This document shows, one piece after another, positions 1-23,316 of a stretch of 24,957 nucleotides of DNA. The position numbers and the translations under genes were made by a program. Within the stretch, counting starts at the first letter, position 1; every line of letters begins with the position of its first letter. Below the pieces are notes generated by a model that was given only the letters and a program-made list of their open reading frames with translations, ran no database searches and was not told the DNA's origin. Source of the DNA: a virus (lineage: Duplodnaviria; Caudoviricetes); IMG/VR virus record IMGVR_UViG_3300047292_000038, positions 1-24,957 of that record. One strand, 5' to 3'.

Positions 1-69
1 ACTTATTTTAGTGAAATTTCACATAAGATAGATACAATTTTAAGAAAAGAATTTAATCCAGAAATGTAA
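1..69 (+). CDS. 3' end of a hypothetical protein (truncated at window start)
   Basis: Frame 1 is open from base 1 (TYFSEISHKIDTILRKEFNPEM*). The TAA stop at 67-69 is part of the TAAC of the first attC-like site. Confidence 0.55.
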   Translation, partial: TYFSEISHKIDTILRKEFNPEM

Positions 70-193
70 CGTACTGCAGCTTTGTGCAGGCGGGAAAATA
101 AACCCGAATAATTTAATTAATAACTAATCTTAAAAATAAAAAACTATGTTTAAATTAAAAACTAAGTCAAGCCATTTCTTATACACGTTGTTA
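67..193 (+). repeat. attC-like site 1 (127 bp; arms poorly complementary, possibly hybrid)
   Basis: TAACG at 67, GCTT 12 nt after the start as in sites 3 and 5, TGTTA ending at 193. Contains the ATG of the 146 ORF. Confidence 0.6.
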
Positions 194-421
194 GTGGCTG
201 TTTTATTTGTCGGTTGCGACAAAAGAAGCGAATATACAAAAAAGTATATTGTATCAAAATCTGACAATAATAACTGGACTACATCTGGAATTGTAGAATG
301 TGATAGCGTTACAATGGTAGATATTAATACAGCTACTTTATGGATTGATGGACATAAAATGAATCTAAAAGGTCAAACAGTTATAGTATATTCAAATACA
401 AGTTATGTTGCTCCAAAATAG
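146..421 (+). CDS. Putative lipoprotein (cassette 1)
   Basis: Basic N-region MFKLKTK, hydrophobic stretch FLYTLLVAVLFV and lipobox-like FVG-C24. The TAG stop lies inside the cassette-end repeat. Confidence 0.7.
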   Translation: MFKLKTKSSHFLYTLLVAVLFVGCDKRSEYTKKYIVSKSDNNNWTTSGIVECDSVTMVDINTATLWIDGHKMNLKGQTVIVYSNTSYVAPK

Positions 422-425
422 CCAC

Positions 426-496
426 TAACGTTAAAACTACACAACGCCAGCCTATGTACAATTATGATTTTGGCTGGTGGTTTGTAGTGATTGTTA
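426..496 (+). repeat. attC-like site 2 (71 bp imperfect hairpin)
   Basis: Left arm TAAC-GTTAAA-ACTAC-ACAACG-CCAGCC; reverse complement of right arm TAAC-AATC-ACTAC-AAACCA-CCAGCC. Confidence 0.75.
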
Positions 497-525
497 TATT
501 CTCGGCTTTTTTACTAACAAATTAA
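454..525 (+). CDS. Possible 23-aa hydrophobic peptide starting inside site 2
   Basis: MYNYDFGWWFVVIVIFSAFLLTN*. GTT at 493 is read in frame, as in sites 3 and 5. Confidence 0.3.
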   Translation: MYNYDFGWWFVVIVIFSAFLLTN

Positions 526-535
526 AATAAACAAA

Positions 536-802
536 ATGAAAAAAACAGTAATTACACAAATTATTGAAAGATTAGAAGATGCTCAAAAGCATATAATGGC
601 AAATACGGATTATGCTATTGGGTATGATGGAGCGTTAAGCGATGCAGTTACAGTATGTGAATCATTTTTAGAAAATGAAATTTTAGAAACTGAAAAATTT
701 GCTGTTAATTTTGTTGTATGGTTAGATAAAAACAAAAAGGAATTAAGAAAAAAAATATTGATTGACGACCTTTTAAATGAATATAAAAAACAGCTTGAGT
801 AG
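536..802 (+). CDS. Hypothetical protein (cassette 2)
   Basis: 88-aa ORF with its own A-rich leader. Shares motifs with ORFs 4026 and 4250. Confidence 0.8.
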   Translation: MKKTVITQIIERLEDAQKHIMANTDYAIGYDGALSDAVTVCESFLENEILETEKFAVNFVVWLDKNKKELRKKILIDDLLNEYKKQLE

Positions 803-834
803 CTTTGGTCACAAAGTTGCTCGAAGCTGGAATA

Positions 835-960
835 TAACGTTCGAGTGCTTGGCGAAGGAGCGGAAAAGTAAAGACCAAGTTTCGATTAATCACTAAAAAT
901 AAAAGCACAAAATGAACATTGAATTAAACCAAAAGCCACAATTGAATAAACACGCTGTTA
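835..960 (+). repeat. attC-like site 3 (126 bp)
   Basis: TAACG...TGTTA. GTGCTTGGCGAAGG (845-858) is identical to 2618-2631 at the same offset. Contains ATG 912. Confidence 0.75.
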
Positions 961-1310
961 GCAGCAGTGCTTATTCTGATTTGGCTAAATTCATAAATAA
1001 ATCACACGAACGTAGATTTAACGATGCATTAATGAAACTTGTAATAGTTGAAATCCAATTAAAAAGTTTTGATTTTAATGAAAATATGATACTTCCTAGA
1101 TACTTTAATAAAAGTGTAGAATATCAGGGAGAAACATATTTAAGAAGTGCTTTTATTAAAGATTTATTGAGCAAAAAAGCAATTAATCAAACTAAAGAAT
1201 TAATTAAAAAAGGTAGTCAAATTAATTTTAAAAACACAGAGCATTTACGAAATTGGATTTCAGAAGAGACAGGAATTAACAGCGGTTCTTTGGCTGCACT
1301 TTTTGAGTAG
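912..1310 (+). CDS. Hypothetical protein (cassette 3) with site-encoded N-terminal leader
   Basis: 132-aa ORF. The first 15 codons lie in site 3 and the TAG stop overlaps the cassette-end repeat. Confidence 0.8.
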   Translation: MNIELNQKPQLNKHAVSSSAYSDLAKFINKSHERRFNDALMKLVIVEIQLKSFDFNENMILPRYFNKSVEYQGETYLRSAFIKDLLSKKAINQTKELIKKGSQINFKNTEHLRNWISEETGINSGSLAALFE

Positions 1311-1319
1311 CATTACTGC

Positions 1320-1444
1320 TAACGGTTGGGGCTTTACGCAGTGGCAAATTTCGGAAACGTAAATTTTCCGTTACTACTGAATTTCTTGCGAAAGAAAAAC
1401 GTGATTGAACCACATATTTTGCCATTGATTTCAAGCCGATGTTA
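1320..1444 (+). repeat. attC-like site 4 (125 bp)
   Basis: Left arm TAAC-GGTTGG-GGCTT-TACG-CAGTGGCAAA; reverse complement of right arm TAAC-ATC-GGCTT-GAAAT-CAATGGCAAA. Confidence 0.8.
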
Positions 1445-1496
1445 GTAGCTGTTTACGGATTATTTTACATTTATTTTAAAAATATTTGTAATTTTA

Positions 1497-1527
1497 TTTG
1501 GTAGTTACAAAATTAGTCGTATATTTG
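1497..1527 (+). promoter_or_regulatory. Bacteroidota-type housekeeping promoter (-33 TTTG / -7 TAnnTTTG)
   Basis: TTTG 1497-1500, 19-nt spacer, TATATTTG 1520-1527, upstream of ATG 1559. Inverted repeat TTTGTAA (1485-1491) / TTACAAA (1505-1511) flanks the -33 box. Confidence 0.75.
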
Positions 1528-1558
1528 TAAAAGAAATAACAACTAAAACAAATAAATT

Positions 1559-1810
1559 ATGAAACTTACAAATGCTTTAAACCTGCTAACTGATAATGAA
1601 ATGTTATTTGAAATTGAAAAAGTAACTAAAGATTATAACAAATACACTGTTATTTTTAACCAATTTACTTTAGTTTTTTATGATAATAAATCTAATGATG
1701 CCGAAAATTTTTATATTTCTAAAAACGGAGTTGATAATGGATATAACGGATATAATGGAGAATTTTTTAAAACACTAACATCGGCTATTAATTTTTTAAA
1801 ATCAAAGTAA
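1559..1810 (+). CDS. Hypothetical protein (cassette 4)
   Basis: 83-aa ORF following the promoter and an A-rich leader. Confidence 0.8.
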   Translation: MKLTNALNLLTDNEMLFEIEKVTKDYNKYTVIFNQFTLVFYDNKSNDAENFYISKNGVDNGYNGYNGEFFKTLTSAINFLKSK

Positions 1811-1811
1811 T

Positions 1812-2060
1812 ATGAAAAATAGAGAACAAAATATAGCTTATTTTCTTTTAAAATTAGGATTTGATAAAAAAGAAATTATACATTTCATAAACAGATGCAG
1901 AGTAATACCTATGATGGGTTCGGTAATGCATATAAAAGGTTTAAGTAAATCATTTGATGATTTCTTAAAAGAAATTGTTTGGAGTAAAAATATTAAAAAC
2001 GAACATAAAATAGATGGTGTTTGTTTTAGAGAATATTTAAGTAAAACATTTGATTTATGA
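1812..2060 (+). CDS. Hypothetical protein (cassette 4)
   Basis: 82-aa ORF tightly packed in the operon. Confidence 0.75.
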   Translation: MKNREQNIAYFLLKLGFDKKEIIHFINRCRVIPMMGSVMHIKGLSKSFDDFLKEIVWSKNIKNEHKIDGVCFREYLSKTFDL

Positions 2061-2158
2061 GCATTGAACAAGAAATAAAAGTGTGGGTAATTTTTTGGAG
2101 TAGTGTAGCTTTATTTTTTTGTGTTTTATGGGTTTTAAATAATTTTAAAAATAAATAA
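2057..2158 (+). CDS. Small single-TM protein (33 aa; not in ORF track)
   Basis: ATGA overlap with the upstream stop; MSIEQEIKVWVIFWSSVALFFCVLWVLNNFKNK*; fills the gap exactly. Confidence 0.6.
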   Translation: MSIEQEIKVWVIFWSSVALFFCVLWVLNNFKNK

Positions 2159-2159
2159 T

Positions 2160-2429
2160 ATGAAGTTAATAAGATGGTTAGCAGAAGTGTCTGGGGTAGC
2201 TAATAAAATAAGACAAGAACAAACTGAATTTATAGGTCATCATTTACATAATTATAGTTATTGGTTTACTGGTGGTTTATCAAATGGAAAATACGATGTT
2301 TGCAATGCGTATGCTAAATATGCTGAATTGTTAATAAAAGGAAATTCACTTTTATGGGGAGGAATGAGTAGTAGATTAAGAGATGAATTATATGAACTTT
2401 CTAAAAAAAATGAATGTGTACATAAATAA
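2160..2429 (+). CDS. Hypothetical protein (cassette 4)
   Basis: 89-aa ORF in the operon. Confidence 0.8.
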   Translation: MKLIRWLAEVSGVANKIRQEQTEFIGHHLHNYSYWFTGGLSNGKYDVCNAYAKYAELLIKGNSLLWGGMSSRLRDELYELSKKNECVHK

Positions 2430-2435
2430 CTAGCT

Positions 2436-2603
2436 ATGCAAAGACAATCAATAATAGTTTTTATTCAAGGCGATAGAATAGAAACGTACGGAAATCTAAA
2501 AAAGTGTTGTGAGTTTGAAAAATTACCCTACCACACTTTAGCACGTTTAAAATTTCCAATTCGGCTGAATGATGTCGTTATACACAAAACGCTCTTTAAA
2601 TAG
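2436..2603 (+). CDS. Small putative HTH DNA-binding protein (55 aa; not in ORF track)
   Basis: MQRQSIIVFIQGDRIETYGNLKKCCEFEKLPYHTLARLKFPIRLNDVVIHKTLFK*. Beta-hairpin plus HTH-like pattern; TAG lies within the cassette-end repeat. Confidence 0.6.
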   Translation: MQRQSIIVFIQGDRIETYGNLKKCCEFEKLPYHTLARLKFPIRLNDVVIHKTLFK

Positions 2604-2607
2604 CTAC

Positions 2608-2732
2608 TAACGGTTCGGTGCTTGGCGAAGGCTGGGATTAGAACCACTAAACTTTAAATTTAAAACAAATGATTATAGAAAGCACAAACGTTGATTTAGC
2701 ACAGAAGCCCAGCTTTTGCCAAACACCTGTTA
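2608..2732 (+). repeat. attC-like site 5 (125 bp)
   Basis: Left arm TAAC-GGTTC-GGTGCTTGGCGAAGGCTGGG; reverse complement of right arm TAAC-A-GGTGTTTGGCAAAAGCTGGG (20-bp stem, 3 mismatches). Contains ATG 2669. Confidence 0.85.
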
Positions 2733-3598
2733 CAGGCAGTACGGGTTTTAATGTACTATCTCTTTTCGATGGTATGTCTTGTGGTCAATTAGCGTTACAA
2801 AAGGCAGGAATAAAAGTAGATAATTATTTTGCGAGTGAAATTAAAAAACACGCAATACAATGTACTAAAGACAATTTTCCAAACACTAAACATATTGGTG
2901 ATGTAACAAAAGTAAAAGCTACTGATTTACCAAAAATTGATTTATTGATAGGTGGAAGTCCTTGTCAAGATTTTAGTCGTGCAAATAGCGTTCGTGATGG
3001 TTTACAAGGAATGAAATCAATGTTATTTTATGAGTACATAAGATTGCTTGAAGAAACAAAACCAAAATACTATTTACTTGAAAACGTGATAATGGATGAT
3101 ATAGGTTACAGTACAATATCTGATTTATTAGGAACTGAACCCGTAAGGCTGTGTGGTTCAAAAGTAAGTGGTGCATTAAGAGATAGATTGTTTTGGACTA
3201 ATATCGGGCCTGAAAGTTTTGATTTATTTGGAAATCGTAAAAGTGCAATACCACAACCGAGAGATAAAAAAATAATGCTGAATGATGTTTTAGAATATGG
3301 ATATTCAGATAAACGAAAACACACTTGTTTAAATACAAGTTGTGGCCGAGATGCAAACCAACGATATATGTTGCATAGATACGCAACTACTGGAATGACA
3401 ACAATAATTTATACAGACGAAACTATGGATGAAAGTAAAGGAGTGAGATATTGCACTCAAACAGAATTAGAAAAACTGCACAATATCCCAATAGGTTATA
3501 CAAAAAACCTAAATAAAGCACAAGCTGGTAATTTAATTGGCGATGGTTGGAATGTAGGGATTGTGGAGCACATTTTCTCTTATATGCAATCAACGTAG
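2669..3598 (+). CDS. DNA (cytosine-5) methyltransferase (cassette 5)
   Basis: Motif I SLFDGMSCG, catalytic GGSPCQDFS, LLENV, RxRLFW and C-terminal LIGDGW. Confidence 0.93.
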   Translation: MIIESTNVDLAQKPSFCQTPVTGSTGFNVLSLFDGMSCGQLALQKAGIKVDNYFASEIKKHAIQCTKDNFPNTKHIGDVTKVKATDLPKIDLLIGGSPCQDFSRANSVRDGLQGMKSMLFYEYIRLLEETKPKYYLLENVIMDDIGYSTISDLLGTEPVRLCGSKVSGALRDRLFWTNIGPESFDLFGNRKSAIPQPRDKKIMLNDVLEYGYSDKRKHTCLNTSCGRDANQRYMLHRYATTGMTTIIYTDETMDESKGVRYCTQTELEKLHNIPIGYTKNLNKAQAGNLIGDGWNVGIVEHIFSYMQST

Positions 3599-3643
3599 TA
3601 TTACTGGCAACTACTTGCTAACCGCTATAAATGTATTACAATT

Positions 3644-3820
3644 ATGAAACTATACACTAAAACAAAGGTTATAAGGATTTCAGAAAGTCAGTTAAAAACG
3701 CTGCAAAAAATGAAGGCTTACAATGTTGATGTAGGGCATTTTATTCGTGAAGCAATCAAAGAAAAGATTAAAAAAGAGTATAAAGAATTAATGCCTAAAC
3801 AAATTAAAACACCATTTTAA
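3644..3820 (+). CDS. Putative ribbon-helix-helix DNA-binding protein (58 aa; not in ORF track)
   Basis: MKLYTKTKVIRISESQLKTLQKMKAYNVDVGHFIREAIKEKIKK...: alternating beta strand followed by two helices. Confidence 0.7.
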   Translation: MKLYTKTKVIRISESQLKTLQKMKAYNVDVGHFIREAIKEKIKKEYKELMPKQIKTPF

Positions 3821-3822
3821 AA

Positions 3823-4029
3823 ATGAAACAATCAAAACAAAAATCTTTAGTTGAGAGCACTGTACAGACTATTATAGGCCTTGCAACTTCAATAGTGCTT
3901 CAGGTGGTACTATATCCGATATTAGGTATTCCCGTATCGTTTACACAAAATTTAATAATAACAGCCGTGTTCTTTATAGTTTCTATTGTAAGAGGGTATA
4001 TCGTACGACGAATCTTTGAAAAACTATGA
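3823..4029 (+). CDS. Small two-TM membrane protein
   Basis: 68 aa, two hydrophobic segments, C-terminal RGYIVRRIF. Confidence 0.8.
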   Translation: MKQSKQKSLVESTVQTIIGLATSIVLQVVLYPILGIPVSFTQNLIITAVFFIVSIVRGYIVRRIFEKL

Positions 4030-4870: not shown

Positions 4871-5155
4871 TCACTATACGAAACAATCGACATTTTAAGA
4901 AAAGACCAAGGGCACAAACTTTGGGGTAAACAGTTTAATAAGTTTGACAAAGACGACTGGGCGGAAATTGAAAGGATTGAAAAATCCGATCCTGTTCAAT
5001 ATGCGAAAAAAGGAAAAACAAAAGAGGTTATGAAAATAAGCACAGGCGAAACCTTTAAGAATATTACACAATGTGCACTGGCCAACGGTATGCACCGTAA
5101 TACTCTTTTTGCGATGTTGTCTCGGGGGTATAAATGTGATTATAGACTGGTATGA
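4865..5155 (+). CDS. Hypothetical protein with C-terminal NUMOD1-like HTH
   Basis: KEVMKISTGETFKNITQCALANGMHRNTLFAML resembles the NUMOD1/IENR1 DNA-binding module. Confidence 0.65.
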   Translation: MKSLYETIDILRKDQGHKLWGKQFNKFDKDDWAEIERIEKSDPVQYAKKGKTKEVMKISTGETFKNITQCALANGMHRNTLFAMLSRGYKCDYRLV

Positions 5156-5775
5156 TGACAATTACAAACGAAGATAATATGCAGCTAATGGCTCGTTACC
5201 CTGATAACTATTTTGATTTGGCGATTGTTGATCCGCCTTATGGGATAGGATTTGACGGCTCAAAGAAAAGTACAAGTAAGCACGGTGGTAGAAAAGAATA
5301 TCAATTTAAAGGATGGGATAATAAAATACCTGAAAAAAAATACTTTAATGAATTGTTTCGTGTTTCTAAGAATCAAATAATTTGGGGTGCTAATTATTTT
5401 ACTAAATATTTACCAAGCTCAATGGGTTGGATATTTTGGGATAAAGGACAAAGAATTTGTAATTCAGATGGTGAATTAGCTTTTACTTCTTTTCAACAAG
5501 CGTTAAGGGTTGCTGAATATAACAGATGCGAAATACAAAAACACGGTGGTGCAATACACCCAACCCAAAAACCCGTTGCACTTTACAAATGGATATTAGA
5601 TAAATACGCAAAGCAAGGAGATAAAATACTTGACACGCATTTAGGAAGTGGAAGTATTGCAATAGCTTGCCACGATTACTGTTTTGATTTGACCGCTTGT
5701 GAATTAGATAAAGAATACTTTGACAAAGCAATGGAAAGAATTACGAATCACGTTGCACAACAAAAACTATTTTAG
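5152..5775 (+). CDS. DNA N6-adenine/N4-cytosine methyltransferase (beta class)
   Basis: Catalytic VDPPY precedes HPTQKP and the SAM-binding LDTHLGSGS. Confidence 0.93.
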   Translation: MMTITNEDNMQLMARYPDNYFDLAIVDPPYGIGFDGSKKSTSKHGGRKEYQFKGWDNKIPEKKYFNELFRVSKNQIIWGANYFTKYLPSSMGWIFWDKGQRICNSDGELAFTSFQQALRVAEYNRCEIQKHGGAIHPTQKPVALYKWILDKYAKQGDKILDTHLGSGSIAIACHDYCFDLTACELDKEYFDKAMERITNHVAQQKLF

Positions 5776-6569: not shown

Positions 6570-7247
6570 ATGAAAAACGAAATTCAAATAATGCCAGTAA
6601 ATGACATTATGATTATGGCAAAAACTTTTGCCGAAAGTGGAATGTTTACCGATGCAAAAGCAATGGGACAAGCATTTGTTAAAATTCAAGCCGGGCAGGA
6701 AATTGGAATACCTCCATTTGCTGCAATGAGTGGTATTCATATCATTCAAGGAAAACCAACTTTAGGAGCTGGATTAATTGCAAGTGCGGTTAAAGGTTCT
6801 GGAAAGTATGATTATAAAGTTAAAGAAATGAACGAAAAGATTTGTTCAATTGACTTTTTACAAGGAACTGAAAATATCGGAAATTCTACTTTTACAATTG
6901 AAGATGCCAAAAAAGCAGGAACAAAAAATATCGACAAGTTTCCTAAAAATATGCTTTTTGCCCGTGCTATTTCAAACGGAGTTAAATGGTTTTGTCCAGA
7001 TGTGTTTGCTGGACCAGTTTATGTGCCAGAAGAAATGCCAGAGCAAACAGTAGATGTGCAACACGTGGAAATAATAGACCAACCGAAAGTATCTAAATTA
7101 TCACAAAAGCAAATTGATAAAATTTTAACTTCGGATATTGCGACTGTAAAAAAAGCATTAAAAGCAATTGAAACAGGAACAGCCGAAGCTACTCCAGAGC
7201 AAGTTGCACAAATTGAAATATATCACGAACTATTAATTAATTCTTAA
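6570..7247 (+). CDS. RecT/Red-beta-like single-strand annealing protein
   Basis: VKIQAGQEIGIPPFAAMSGIHIIQGKPTL and PKNMLFARAIS...CPDV patterns; lies beside the SSB-like and nuclease genes. Confidence 0.75.
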   Translation: MKNEIQIMPVNDIMIMAKTFAESGMFTDAKAMGQAFVKIQAGQEIGIPPFAAMSGIHIIQGKPTLGAGLIASAVKGSGKYDYKVKEMNEKICSIDFLQGTENIGNSTFTIEDAKKAGTKNIDKFPKNMLFARAISNGVKWFCPDVFAGPVYVPEEMPEQTVDVQHVEIIDQPKVSKLSQKQIDKILTSDIATVKKALKAIETGTAEATPEQVAQIEIYHELLINS

Positions 7248-10046: not shown

Positions 10047-10054
10047 GAAAAACT

Positions 10055-10166
10055 AACTGGTTTAAACTGGTTTAAAAGCCTGATTAAACTAGGTGGTTTA
10101 GTACCCCTTATAAAGGGGACTAAACTACTAAACCACTAAACCAGTTTAATTGATTAAACCACTAAA
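10055..10166. repeat. Candidate replication origin: inverted TAAACYA iterons around a GC hairpin
   Basis: TGGTTTA at 10058, 10068 and 10094; TAAACYA at 10085, 10121, 10129, 10137 and 10155; central CCCCTT-ATA-AAGGGG. Confidence 0.65.
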
Positions 10167-22215: not shown

Positions 22216-22761
22216 ATGCCTTGCGATATATCATTAGGAAGAATAGAACAATGTAAGGATTCTGTAGGAGGTTTAAAAGCGGTTTACTTCATTAATTGGG
22301 GTGATGCTACAACTGTAACATATTCTGCAACTGCTGGACAAGAAGATGTAATTATAGCTTTGGGCGGAACGCCTGTGGGTTATAAATATGAATTGAAAGG
22401 TACAAGTTCTTTTGAACAAACTTTAACAAGTTCAAGAGATAACGGAACTACTTTTGTAGAACAAAAATTGACATTAAATTTGAAAAAATTGTCGATTGCA
22501 GACCACAAACAAATCAAACTTTTGGCATACGGTCGCCCTCAAATAATTATAGAGGATAACAACGGCAACTGGTTTATGTCAGGTTTGACTTTGGGAATGG
22601 ATTTAACAACTGCTGCAATCACTACGGGTGCTGCAATGGGAGATGCTTCTTCTTATAACTTAGAGTTTCAAGGAATGGAGCCTAAACCAGCTAATTTTAT
22701 TGTCCCTGTTGCGGGTACTTTAACAACTGCTGTATTAGCTTCTATCGTTTCGGGTACTTAA
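22216..22761 (+). CDS. Putative major tail tube protein, paralog 1
   Basis: 181 aa, beta-rich; CKDSVGGLKAVYF, NGTTFVEQKL and EDNNGN. Confidence 0.65.
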   Translation: MPCDISLGRIEQCKDSVGGLKAVYFINWGDATTVTYSATAGQEDVIIALGGTPVGYKYELKGTSSFEQTLTSSRDNGTTFVEQKLTLNLKKLSIADHKQIKLLAYGRPQIIIEDNNGNWFMSGLTLGMDLTTAAITTGAAMGDASSYNLEFQGMEPKPANFIVPVAGTLTTAVLASIVSGT

Positions 22762-22779
22762 TCTTAAAAAAATAAAATT

Positions 22780-23316
22780 ATGGCTTGTGATATTGGATTG
22801 GGGCGTATAGAACCCTGTAAGGACAGTTTGGGCGGATTAAGAGCTGTTTATTTTTCTAATTATAGAAATAATTTAGATATTCAATATACATCTGGTGCAG
22901 GAAATGAAGATGTTATTTCTGAATTGGGTGGTGGCACTTTAACAGCTTATAAATATGAATTAAAAGGCGCTTCTACATTTGAACAAACTGTAACGAGTTC
23001 AAGGGAAAATGGAACTACATTTGTAGAACAAAAACTATCTTTAGATTTAAAAAAATTAACTATACAAGACCATAAACAGTTACGTTTATTGGCTTATAGC
23101 AGGCCACATATATTTGTAGAAGATAATAATGGTAATATATTTGTTGCTGGACTAATGAAAGGAATGGATTTAGTTTCTTCTACAATTTCAACAGGTGCTG
23201 CGATGGGAGATATGTCAGGATATAAATTAGAATTTTCTGGCACTGAATTTAAACCCGCTAATTTTATTGAAAGTGGTGATTTAAGTGGGGCTTTAGTTAC
23301 TATTGTAACTGGATAA
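22780..23316 (+). CDS. Putative major tail tube protein, paralog 2
   Basis: 178 aa; aligns end to end with the preceding gene. Confidence 0.65.
   Translation: MACDIGLGRIEPCKDSLGGLRAVYFSNYRNNLDIQYTSGAGNEDVISELGGGTLTAYKYELKGASTFEQTVTSSRENGTTFVEQKLSLDLKKLTIQDHKQLRLLAYSRPHIFVEDNNGNIFVAGLMKGMDLVSSTISTGAAMGDMSGYKLEFSGTEFKPANFIESGDLSGALVTIVTG

Follow-up and report, generated by a model that had tools for sequence, protein, structure and literature searches.

How is translation started in a phage gene that has no start codon after its cassette boundary? The question is raised by IMG/VR record IMGVR_UViG_3300047292_000038, a linear virus DNA of 24,957 bases, estimated to be 78% complete, which was analysed whole and is called the window here. 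It carries terminase, RecT-like and methyltransferase genes, and its source is a freshwater Flavobacterium-type phage. In its left part, five sites of the form AAC-inner-GTT (site coordinates give the inner part, between AAC and GTT) bound five cassettes, three of which lack a start codon after their boundary. From sequence comparisons, we read the array, with a probability of about 0.78, as an integrase-less series of integron-like cassettes that is the mirror image of an integron: the hairpin would precede its gene, exchange would occur at AAC, and the hairpin loop would likely be the gene's own ribosome-binding region and start.

All features lie on the plus strand. The left flank (1–70) is the end of a phage reading frame whose TAA stop falls inside the first TAAC, and the first exchange point follows AAC 70; L389 and L390, two of the comparison loci, phage or bacterial, that were fetched for array analysis and are numbered with an L, share window positions 1–72 and then carry other cassettes. 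Site 1 (71–189) holds ATG 146 in its loop and leads into ORF 146 (146–421; body 190–429), which encodes a predicted lipoprotein of 91 aa whose residues 1–14 are site-coded, in the phase xxG|TTA. Site 2 (430–492) is a short intact hairpin whose family, with the same cassette head, recurs in L390, L403, L405 and L373; the cassette behind it (body 493–838; ORF 536–802) is not headless, because it has its own ATG at 536. Site 3 (839–956), with ATG 912 in its loop, precedes ORF 912 (912–1310; body 957–1323), encoding 132 aa of unknown function, with residues 1–15 site-coded and GTT read as Val16. Site 4 (1324–1440), which matches L375, L376 and L402, is a paired hairpin unfused to the next gene. 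Site 5 (2612–2728) is an intact hairpin with a stem of about 20 bp and an A-rich loop containing ATG 2669, followed by a C5 DNA methyltransferase gene (MTase; 2669–3598, body 2729–3611) with 20 site-coded residues. ATGs 146, 912 and 2669 thus lie within sites and read through GTT in the phases given by the earlier note on this DNA.

Each body opens with GTT and closes with a complementary AAC arm, so that core boxes and complementary cassette ends, as in canonical attC sites, are present. The pairs 190/429 and 1441/2611 (14/15 each) are the top two of the whole window, 957/1323 scores 13/15, as do five other window pairs, and 493/838 and 2729/3611 reach 10/14 and, read from the sequence, 9/14. 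Compared with shuffled sequences, plus-strand folding was strong for sites 2 and 5 (z −3.07 and −2.87; −3.40 for site 5 as RNA), weak for site 4 (−0.85) and absent for sites 1 and 3 (−0.26 and +1.57); on the minus strand, no window site fell below z −1.5. The arm scores of sites 5 and 1 were 46 and 5.5; the scorer is ungapped, so bulged sites may be under-called, and site 5 pairs without a bulge. The coding strand was the better-folding one in 219 of 224 sites, with 2–5 extra bases on the AAC side of the arm pairing (3–4 in 199 of the 224). An Rfam scan of the window gave no match, and the sites were absent among the repeat families shown by a generic repeat finder. A 23-base site pattern gave an estimated 730 or so genome stretches, and the pattern drawn from the sites led mostly to Bacteroidota genomes (80 of the 124 loci listed); a metagenome scan added three loci only. 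Among cultured phages, the best non-chance DNA matches of site 5 were Flavobacterium Muminviruses (6 of 8 records).

To which gene, then, does a hairpin belong? Homology to the window MTase ends at 3611, the AAC, in L002, L003 and L011 and at 3612 in L006, and then diverges; in the relatives sharing its head (L013, L014 and L039) it starts at 2604–2607, with an AAC at about 2605–2611. L001–L003 carry one hairpin and MTase behind three different neighbours, each changing at AAC, and of 15 viral matches to the site-5 arm, 13 continue into the same headless MTase head behind different neighbours. Homology of shared cassettes therefore runs from upstream AAC to downstream AAC, indicating that the leader belongs to the mobile unit. 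With bodies called from complementary ends alone, we then compared 71 homologous body pairs from different loci over 30 bases on each side, setting aside 16 that had a search pattern in common; same-locus pairs were dropped (six nested mis-calls and one tandem pair, the sole downstream-only case). Among the remaining 55, only the upstream site was retained in 23, only the downstream site in none, both in 11 and neither in 21. At 95% identity or more, the respective counts were 20, 0, 11 and 3, the last three apparently being one family whose site falls short of the cut-off despite visible homology (one pair shown), and by family (24) they were 10, 0, 9 and 7. Of the 19 upstream-only pairs that could be evaluated, 13 also diverge immediately outside the upstream AAC. 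Unlike a canonical attC, which lies 3' of its gene and moves with the upstream gene, the site here stays with the gene behind it. Together with the outer ends of the array, these counts indicate a unit of hairpin, gene and AAC, the mirror of an integron cassette, and the hairpin would thus be a built-in start of its cassette rather than an on/off switch set by the neighbour.

For start codons, cassette bodies were called in the fetched phage loci solely by end complementarity (at least 12/14) and kept if a hairpin stood in front; after removal of near-duplicates, 337 remained, 335 of them with an ORF of at least 40 codons. As the earlier note had proposed, many are headless, here defined as open from GTT without an ATG within 20 codons: 76 of 335 (about 23%). 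In 74 of these, the cassette's own upstream site contains an ATG in frame; random sites would give 27.5 ± 4.2 (at most 41 over 1000 draws). With the cut-off set at 15, 30 or 40 codons, the results were 79/84, 57/58 and 51/51, and a smaller cassette set gave 59/61. The site-coded leaders are 12–26 residues long. An A stands at −12 and −13 of the site ATGs in 81% of 59 cases, and in 78% and 67% for ordinary window genes; adenines at −3, −6, −12 and −13 promote initiation in Flavobacterium johnsoniae (PMC6847099), so that the two outer positions match a Flavobacterium start signature. These comparisons suggest that translation of headless cassettes likely starts within the preceding hairpin. The scarcity of a third phase is partly trivial, because in 133 of the 335 cassettes the second codon of that frame is TAG or TAA. 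ATG 454, at the GC-rich edge of the site-2 stem, had also been considered a possible start, but it is probably not one, as it opens only a 23-codon ORF that ends at 525. General translational coupling of site ORFs to genes with their own start was rejected (16/156, against a null of 21.2 ± 3.6); in L004–L006, a site ORF read in a different frame has a TGA stop that overlaps the MTase ATG, an arrangement that is not general across cassettes. In the family of site 3, six loci with an unfused gene (L098, L103 and L105–L108) have CTA in the loop where the fused loci L081, L082 and L099 have ATG. For chromosomes, the filters left 16 bacterial cassettes, a number too small for a judgement on headlessness.

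The MTase shows how such a start may arise. Its first 20 residues (MIIESTNVDLAQKPSFCQTP) are coded by site 5, and the first ATG past the junction sits within C5-MTase motif I (FDGM), in agreement with the earlier note; no GTG or TTG lies between either. The product matches PF00145 and TIGR00675 above cut-off (113 and 118 bits), PF00145 from residue 27. The further claim that the enzyme needs the upstream site holds for the ATG but not for the peptide, since relatives that are 96–97% identical start at their own MNVLSLFDGM. In relatives with their own start, the arm is followed by about 19 additional bases that include an ATG, and almost every relative displayed begins with MNVLSLF; start loss is thus the likelier direction. 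With the site lying 5' of the gene, an in-frame loop ATG would let a gene lose its own start, as in this MTase head, which is without the roughly 19 nt of the usual start. The window gene is chimeric, its headless head being of L013 type and its body of L001 type, with a crossover near 2800–2850, which explains the poorly matched ends of its cassette. A second DNA methyltransferase gene (5152–5775) lies outside the array with its own start, and similar enzymes are cassettes in Muminviruses.

Leaders are also exchanged between bodies. Among 31 homologues of ORF 912 (overall identity 64–89%, from database gene calls), 26 have leaders of about seven types that share one end register and five have none; N-termini hence diverge at the junction, as had been predicted. 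L408 has a version of ORF 912 without cassette ends. At the DNA level, sites are swapped in frame at GTT in front of bodies with 90–92% identity in the pairs L406/window, L101/L142 and L112/L191. The expectation that leaders would recur on other proteins was likewise borne out: the ORF 912 leader stands on an unrelated body in L082, the MTase leader on another body in L089, and in 7 of 24 aligned homologues the ORF 146 leader is joined to other bodies. The resemblance between leaders that had been noticed in the window lies mainly in the end coded by the hairpin arm, and they derive from different site families. In ORF 146, the site codes the basic start, about half, of a predicted lipoprotein signal peptide, with a basic n-region, a hydrophobic h-region and a lipobox-like LFVGC pattern, which we take to be a lipoprotein motif; Cys24 is nearly invariant among homologues, and searches of ORF 146 against Pfam, NCBIfam and PHROG gave no match. 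A lipoprotein-like pattern was seen by eye in four other headless cassettes, among nine regular-expression hits. Some leaders may therefore be functional.

Leader replacement at GTT appears to be slower than the exchange of units and nearly always in frame. Only 2 of the 76 headless cassettes are in an off state (out of frame), as compared with about 64% expected under free reassortment of sites. Both points argue for leader grafting filtered by selection and not for a reversible switch. We propose that, more rarely than unit exchange, the site before a body is replaced at GTT, by other-strand exchange or at cassette birth, which would graft a new leader, and that out-of-frame products would be purged. 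A bolder possibility, which we put forward tentatively and consider to have well under an even chance, is that a non-IntI recombinase of Bacteroidota and their phages cuts the hairpins at both ends, often at AAC, moving whole units, and less often at GTT, moving a start-and-leader module. In that case, the array would act as a programmed shuffler of N-termini, retuning translation and able to supply half of a membrane-targeting signal to captured bodies.

At its right end, the array closes with a terminal site without a hairpin (3609–3643), AAC followed by TACTTGCTAAC..., which is likely an attI-like entry site. It was found in 33 of 40 loci with a homologue of the gene at 3644, behind 29 different 14-mers (a position-bound count), and inspection by eye revealed a variant in two of the seven misses; two looser patterns (40/40 and 38/40) also matched elsewhere in the loci and were replaced. 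The small gene directly after it (3644–3820; 58 aa; phrog_25647, function unknown) has a weak DUF6290 match that does not reach the cut-off; it always comes next to the terminal site, at the place occupied by a recombinase in other, related phages. Among 47 viral loci with relatives of the L106 recombinase, upstream hairpins were seen in 35 of the 36 loci evaluable for them and downstream hairpins in 2 of 46; of the 127 upstream sites, 124 shared one polarity. A terminal AAC site preceded the gene in 45 of the 47 loci, with 39 different sequences in front of it. The L106 enzyme lacks about 48 residues of the IntI insertion (compared with VchIntIA) and is 40% identical to the enzyme of the bacterial locus L315; the four enzymes scanned scored 133–194 bits, in two stretches, against a TIGR02249 cut-off of 265. 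A loose regular expression found 13 tyrosine-recombinase-like ORFs in the loci, several of them beside arrays in phages and bacteria, and a stricter one none. A second recombinase clade occurs near sites in L250, L262 and L275, with the sites downstream or the gene right after a site. From position, an Xer-like tyrosine recombinase may act on these sites; supplied in trans in the present phage, it would recombine the folded coding strand at AAC, and new units would be added at the terminal site, the 3' end of the array, which would leave the genes co-oriented with phage transcription.

As in integrons (PMC5027507, PMC4889954), there are hairpin AAC/GTT sites with complementary ends and one stabler strand, exchange at AAC, and variable arrays with a fixed entry site, a functional analogue of attI by comparison only, beside a tyrosine recombinase. 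The AAC cut of integrons is made in the stabler strand (PMC5027507). Here, however, the hairpin precedes the gene, the better fold is that of the coding strand, the genes are oriented toward the entry site and recombinase, the stem register is shifted, the recombinase is without the IntI insertion, and nearly a quarter of the cassettes start in a site. The spacers of about 6 and 5 nt and the extrahelical bases opposite the AAC arm of canonical attC are not found, and the register shift is +2 to +5. By the features tested, the system is not a canonical integron, but it likely works like one.

The best surviving of the rival explanations, although we consider it improbable, is an ordinary integrase-less attC cluster (CALIN) handled by a canonical IntI, with genes merely antisense to the usual polarity. 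In a loose sense, the CALIN criterion fits the window (five attC-like sites and no recombinase on the contig), its cores, paired cassette ends and strand asymmetry are attC-like, and Qi et al. 2023 (PMC9892861), in work on CALINs of virulent phages, described integrase-less clusters in Polaribacter phage P12002L, a Flavobacteriaceae phage, as a CALIN with two orphan methyltransferases, whose attC2 recombined with IntI1. The arm pairing of our sites nevertheless has 2–5 extra AAC-side bases, against about 1 in attCaadA7 (PMC9892861, Table S3), and the neighbouring recombinases fall under the TIGR02249 cut-off as well as lacking the insertion. Moreover, P12002L_attC1, predicted by HattCI directly before an MTase, with the coding strand taken as the bottom strand, has the geometry and position described here, and it was the sole one of six sites that IntI1 did not integrate. 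That paper notes divergent site directions, and its main text contains no 'start codon'; reversed polarity, a terminal site and a dedicated recombinase are not described in the part consulted. Two other known systems are close to the proposed mirror-image array. ORF-11, ORF-17 and ORF-18 of attI1 and short attC ORFs (PMC8876359) show that a site can give translation signals, and some fused N-termini are known, but there the signal lies in the fixed attI1 and acts mostly by coupling at the first position, whereas here it is carried by each mobile hairpin and fused in frame. Insertions at attG (bioRxiv 10.1101/2022.09.11.507474) likewise place cassettes away from an integrase, to be expressed from nearby promoters; in contrast, the conserved terminal site described here is reused in many phages. 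The open-access literature searched, from which subscription papers were mostly absent, yielded no description of reversed cassettes or site-encoded N-termini in Bacteroidota.

Homologous recombination also appears to have contributed. Sites 1 and 3 are each a hybrid of two site families and for this reason do not fold; the left half matches one family, the right half another, and the two matches overlap in the loop: in site 1 the left part resembles L396 (67–138) and the right part L110 (89–218), and in site 3 the left part resembles L109 (835–927) and the right part L081 from 862. Their arms are non-pairing and both sites (71–189 and 839–956) are likely dead for recombination, which would fix the cassettes behind them in place with their starts kept. 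Crossovers of this kind would swap loop halves and gene halves while the ATG and the body stay together, and a RecT-like annealing protein (6570–7247; PHROG 561, E 1e-17) is a candidate for those in loops and bodies. Such crossovers in sites 1 and 3 and in the chimeric MTase, the RecT-like gene and the lack of a recombinase on the contig could suggest that the hairpins are small inserted repeats, like miniature transposable elements with inverted repeats (MITEs), and that the mosaic arose solely by homologous recombination. This is less probable still, as breakpoints are base-precise at AAC between unrelated sequences, each body carries complementary ends of its own, arrays in related phages are bordered by a recombinase gene and a fixed terminal site, and the text of a MITE survey, as far as consulted, makes no mention of attC (PMC11602168). 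The earlier note's own proposal, in which the upstream cassette would own the site, as in integrons, and the neighbour's frame would turn headless genes on or off in a combinatorial translation switch, is the least probable and largely refuted, for although leader replacement is real, about 36% of random sites could supply a frame and ORF-11 of attI1 is a precedent that helps first-position cassettes without a start region (PMC8876359), neighbours change at AAC, also at the left flank and the terminal site, downstream-only retention was not seen and off states are rare.

Several points weigh against the mirror-image array itself. A search with the PF00589 profile found no tyrosine recombinase on the contig, nor was one found in Muminvirus filifjonk9-1 or P12002L (one of five records searched was positive). 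Two of the five window sites, 1 and 3, are unable to fold and may be inert. The body pairs are not independent, and the 21 of 55 in which both sites changed, 15 of them at 75–88% identity, indicate that linkage to the upstream site decays with time. An A at −3 is rarer in site ATGs (46%) than in ordinary window genes (72%), ATG 2669 has a C there, and in RNA the site-5 stem encloses the start and could hinder initiation. Finally, recombination and translation starts are predicted here from sequence.

If correct, the mirror-image array suggests that Bacteroidota and their phages share a widespread system of gene capture; complete integrons are almost absent from this group according to integron surveys (PMC9024848). 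Hairpins would be recombined by an enzyme that lacks the IntI insertion, and a recombination site would double as coding sequence and start signal, suggesting a route from start-less fragments to genes. Methyltransferase cassettes of this kind are carried by cultured Muminvirus phages, among which a difference in methyltransferase has been connected with plating efficiency (PMC7077304); the system can therefore be tested directly. Two of these cultured phages hold arrays of at least eight cassettes with several methyltransferases (L111:1700–6741 and L112:400–4819), with no tyrosine recombinase in the one genome searched.

One sequencing run (X1) is possibly the source sample and thus not independent. 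Its contigs span the whole stretch at depths of 137, 85, 56 and 255, fork at 127 into the cognate half of site 1, and cover 2532–3900 (site 5, MTase and terminal site) as a single contig, a pattern that fits array variants with site 5 fixed to its gene. No RNA sample was listed as containing the DNA. No joint at AAC was seen in contigs of four runs; a 203–1464 joint was rejected as an AAC exchange, since other letters lie between and it looks like another cassette head.

Cassettes also vary internally. The shell of 493–838, that is, its head and tail arms, holds different genes in L390, L403, L405 and L373, which suggests gene replacement inside a fixed shell. Cassette 4 (1441–2611) is multi-gene, with four ORFs that all have their own starts (1559–1810, 1812–2060, 2160–2429 and 2436–2603); it shares its head and last gene with L374, and its promoter region and last gene with Muminviruses, with different inner genes in each case. 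Its promoter-like TATATTTG at 1520–1527, presumably the Bacteroidota −7 promoter motif, could drive the downstream MTase. Elsewhere in the window, two tandem paralogous tail-tube-like genes occupy 22216–23316 (74% DNA identity over 189 bases), and short AAACTGGTTT/AAACCA-type repeats and palindromes follow a helicase-like ORF at 10053–10143, possibly marking a replication origin.

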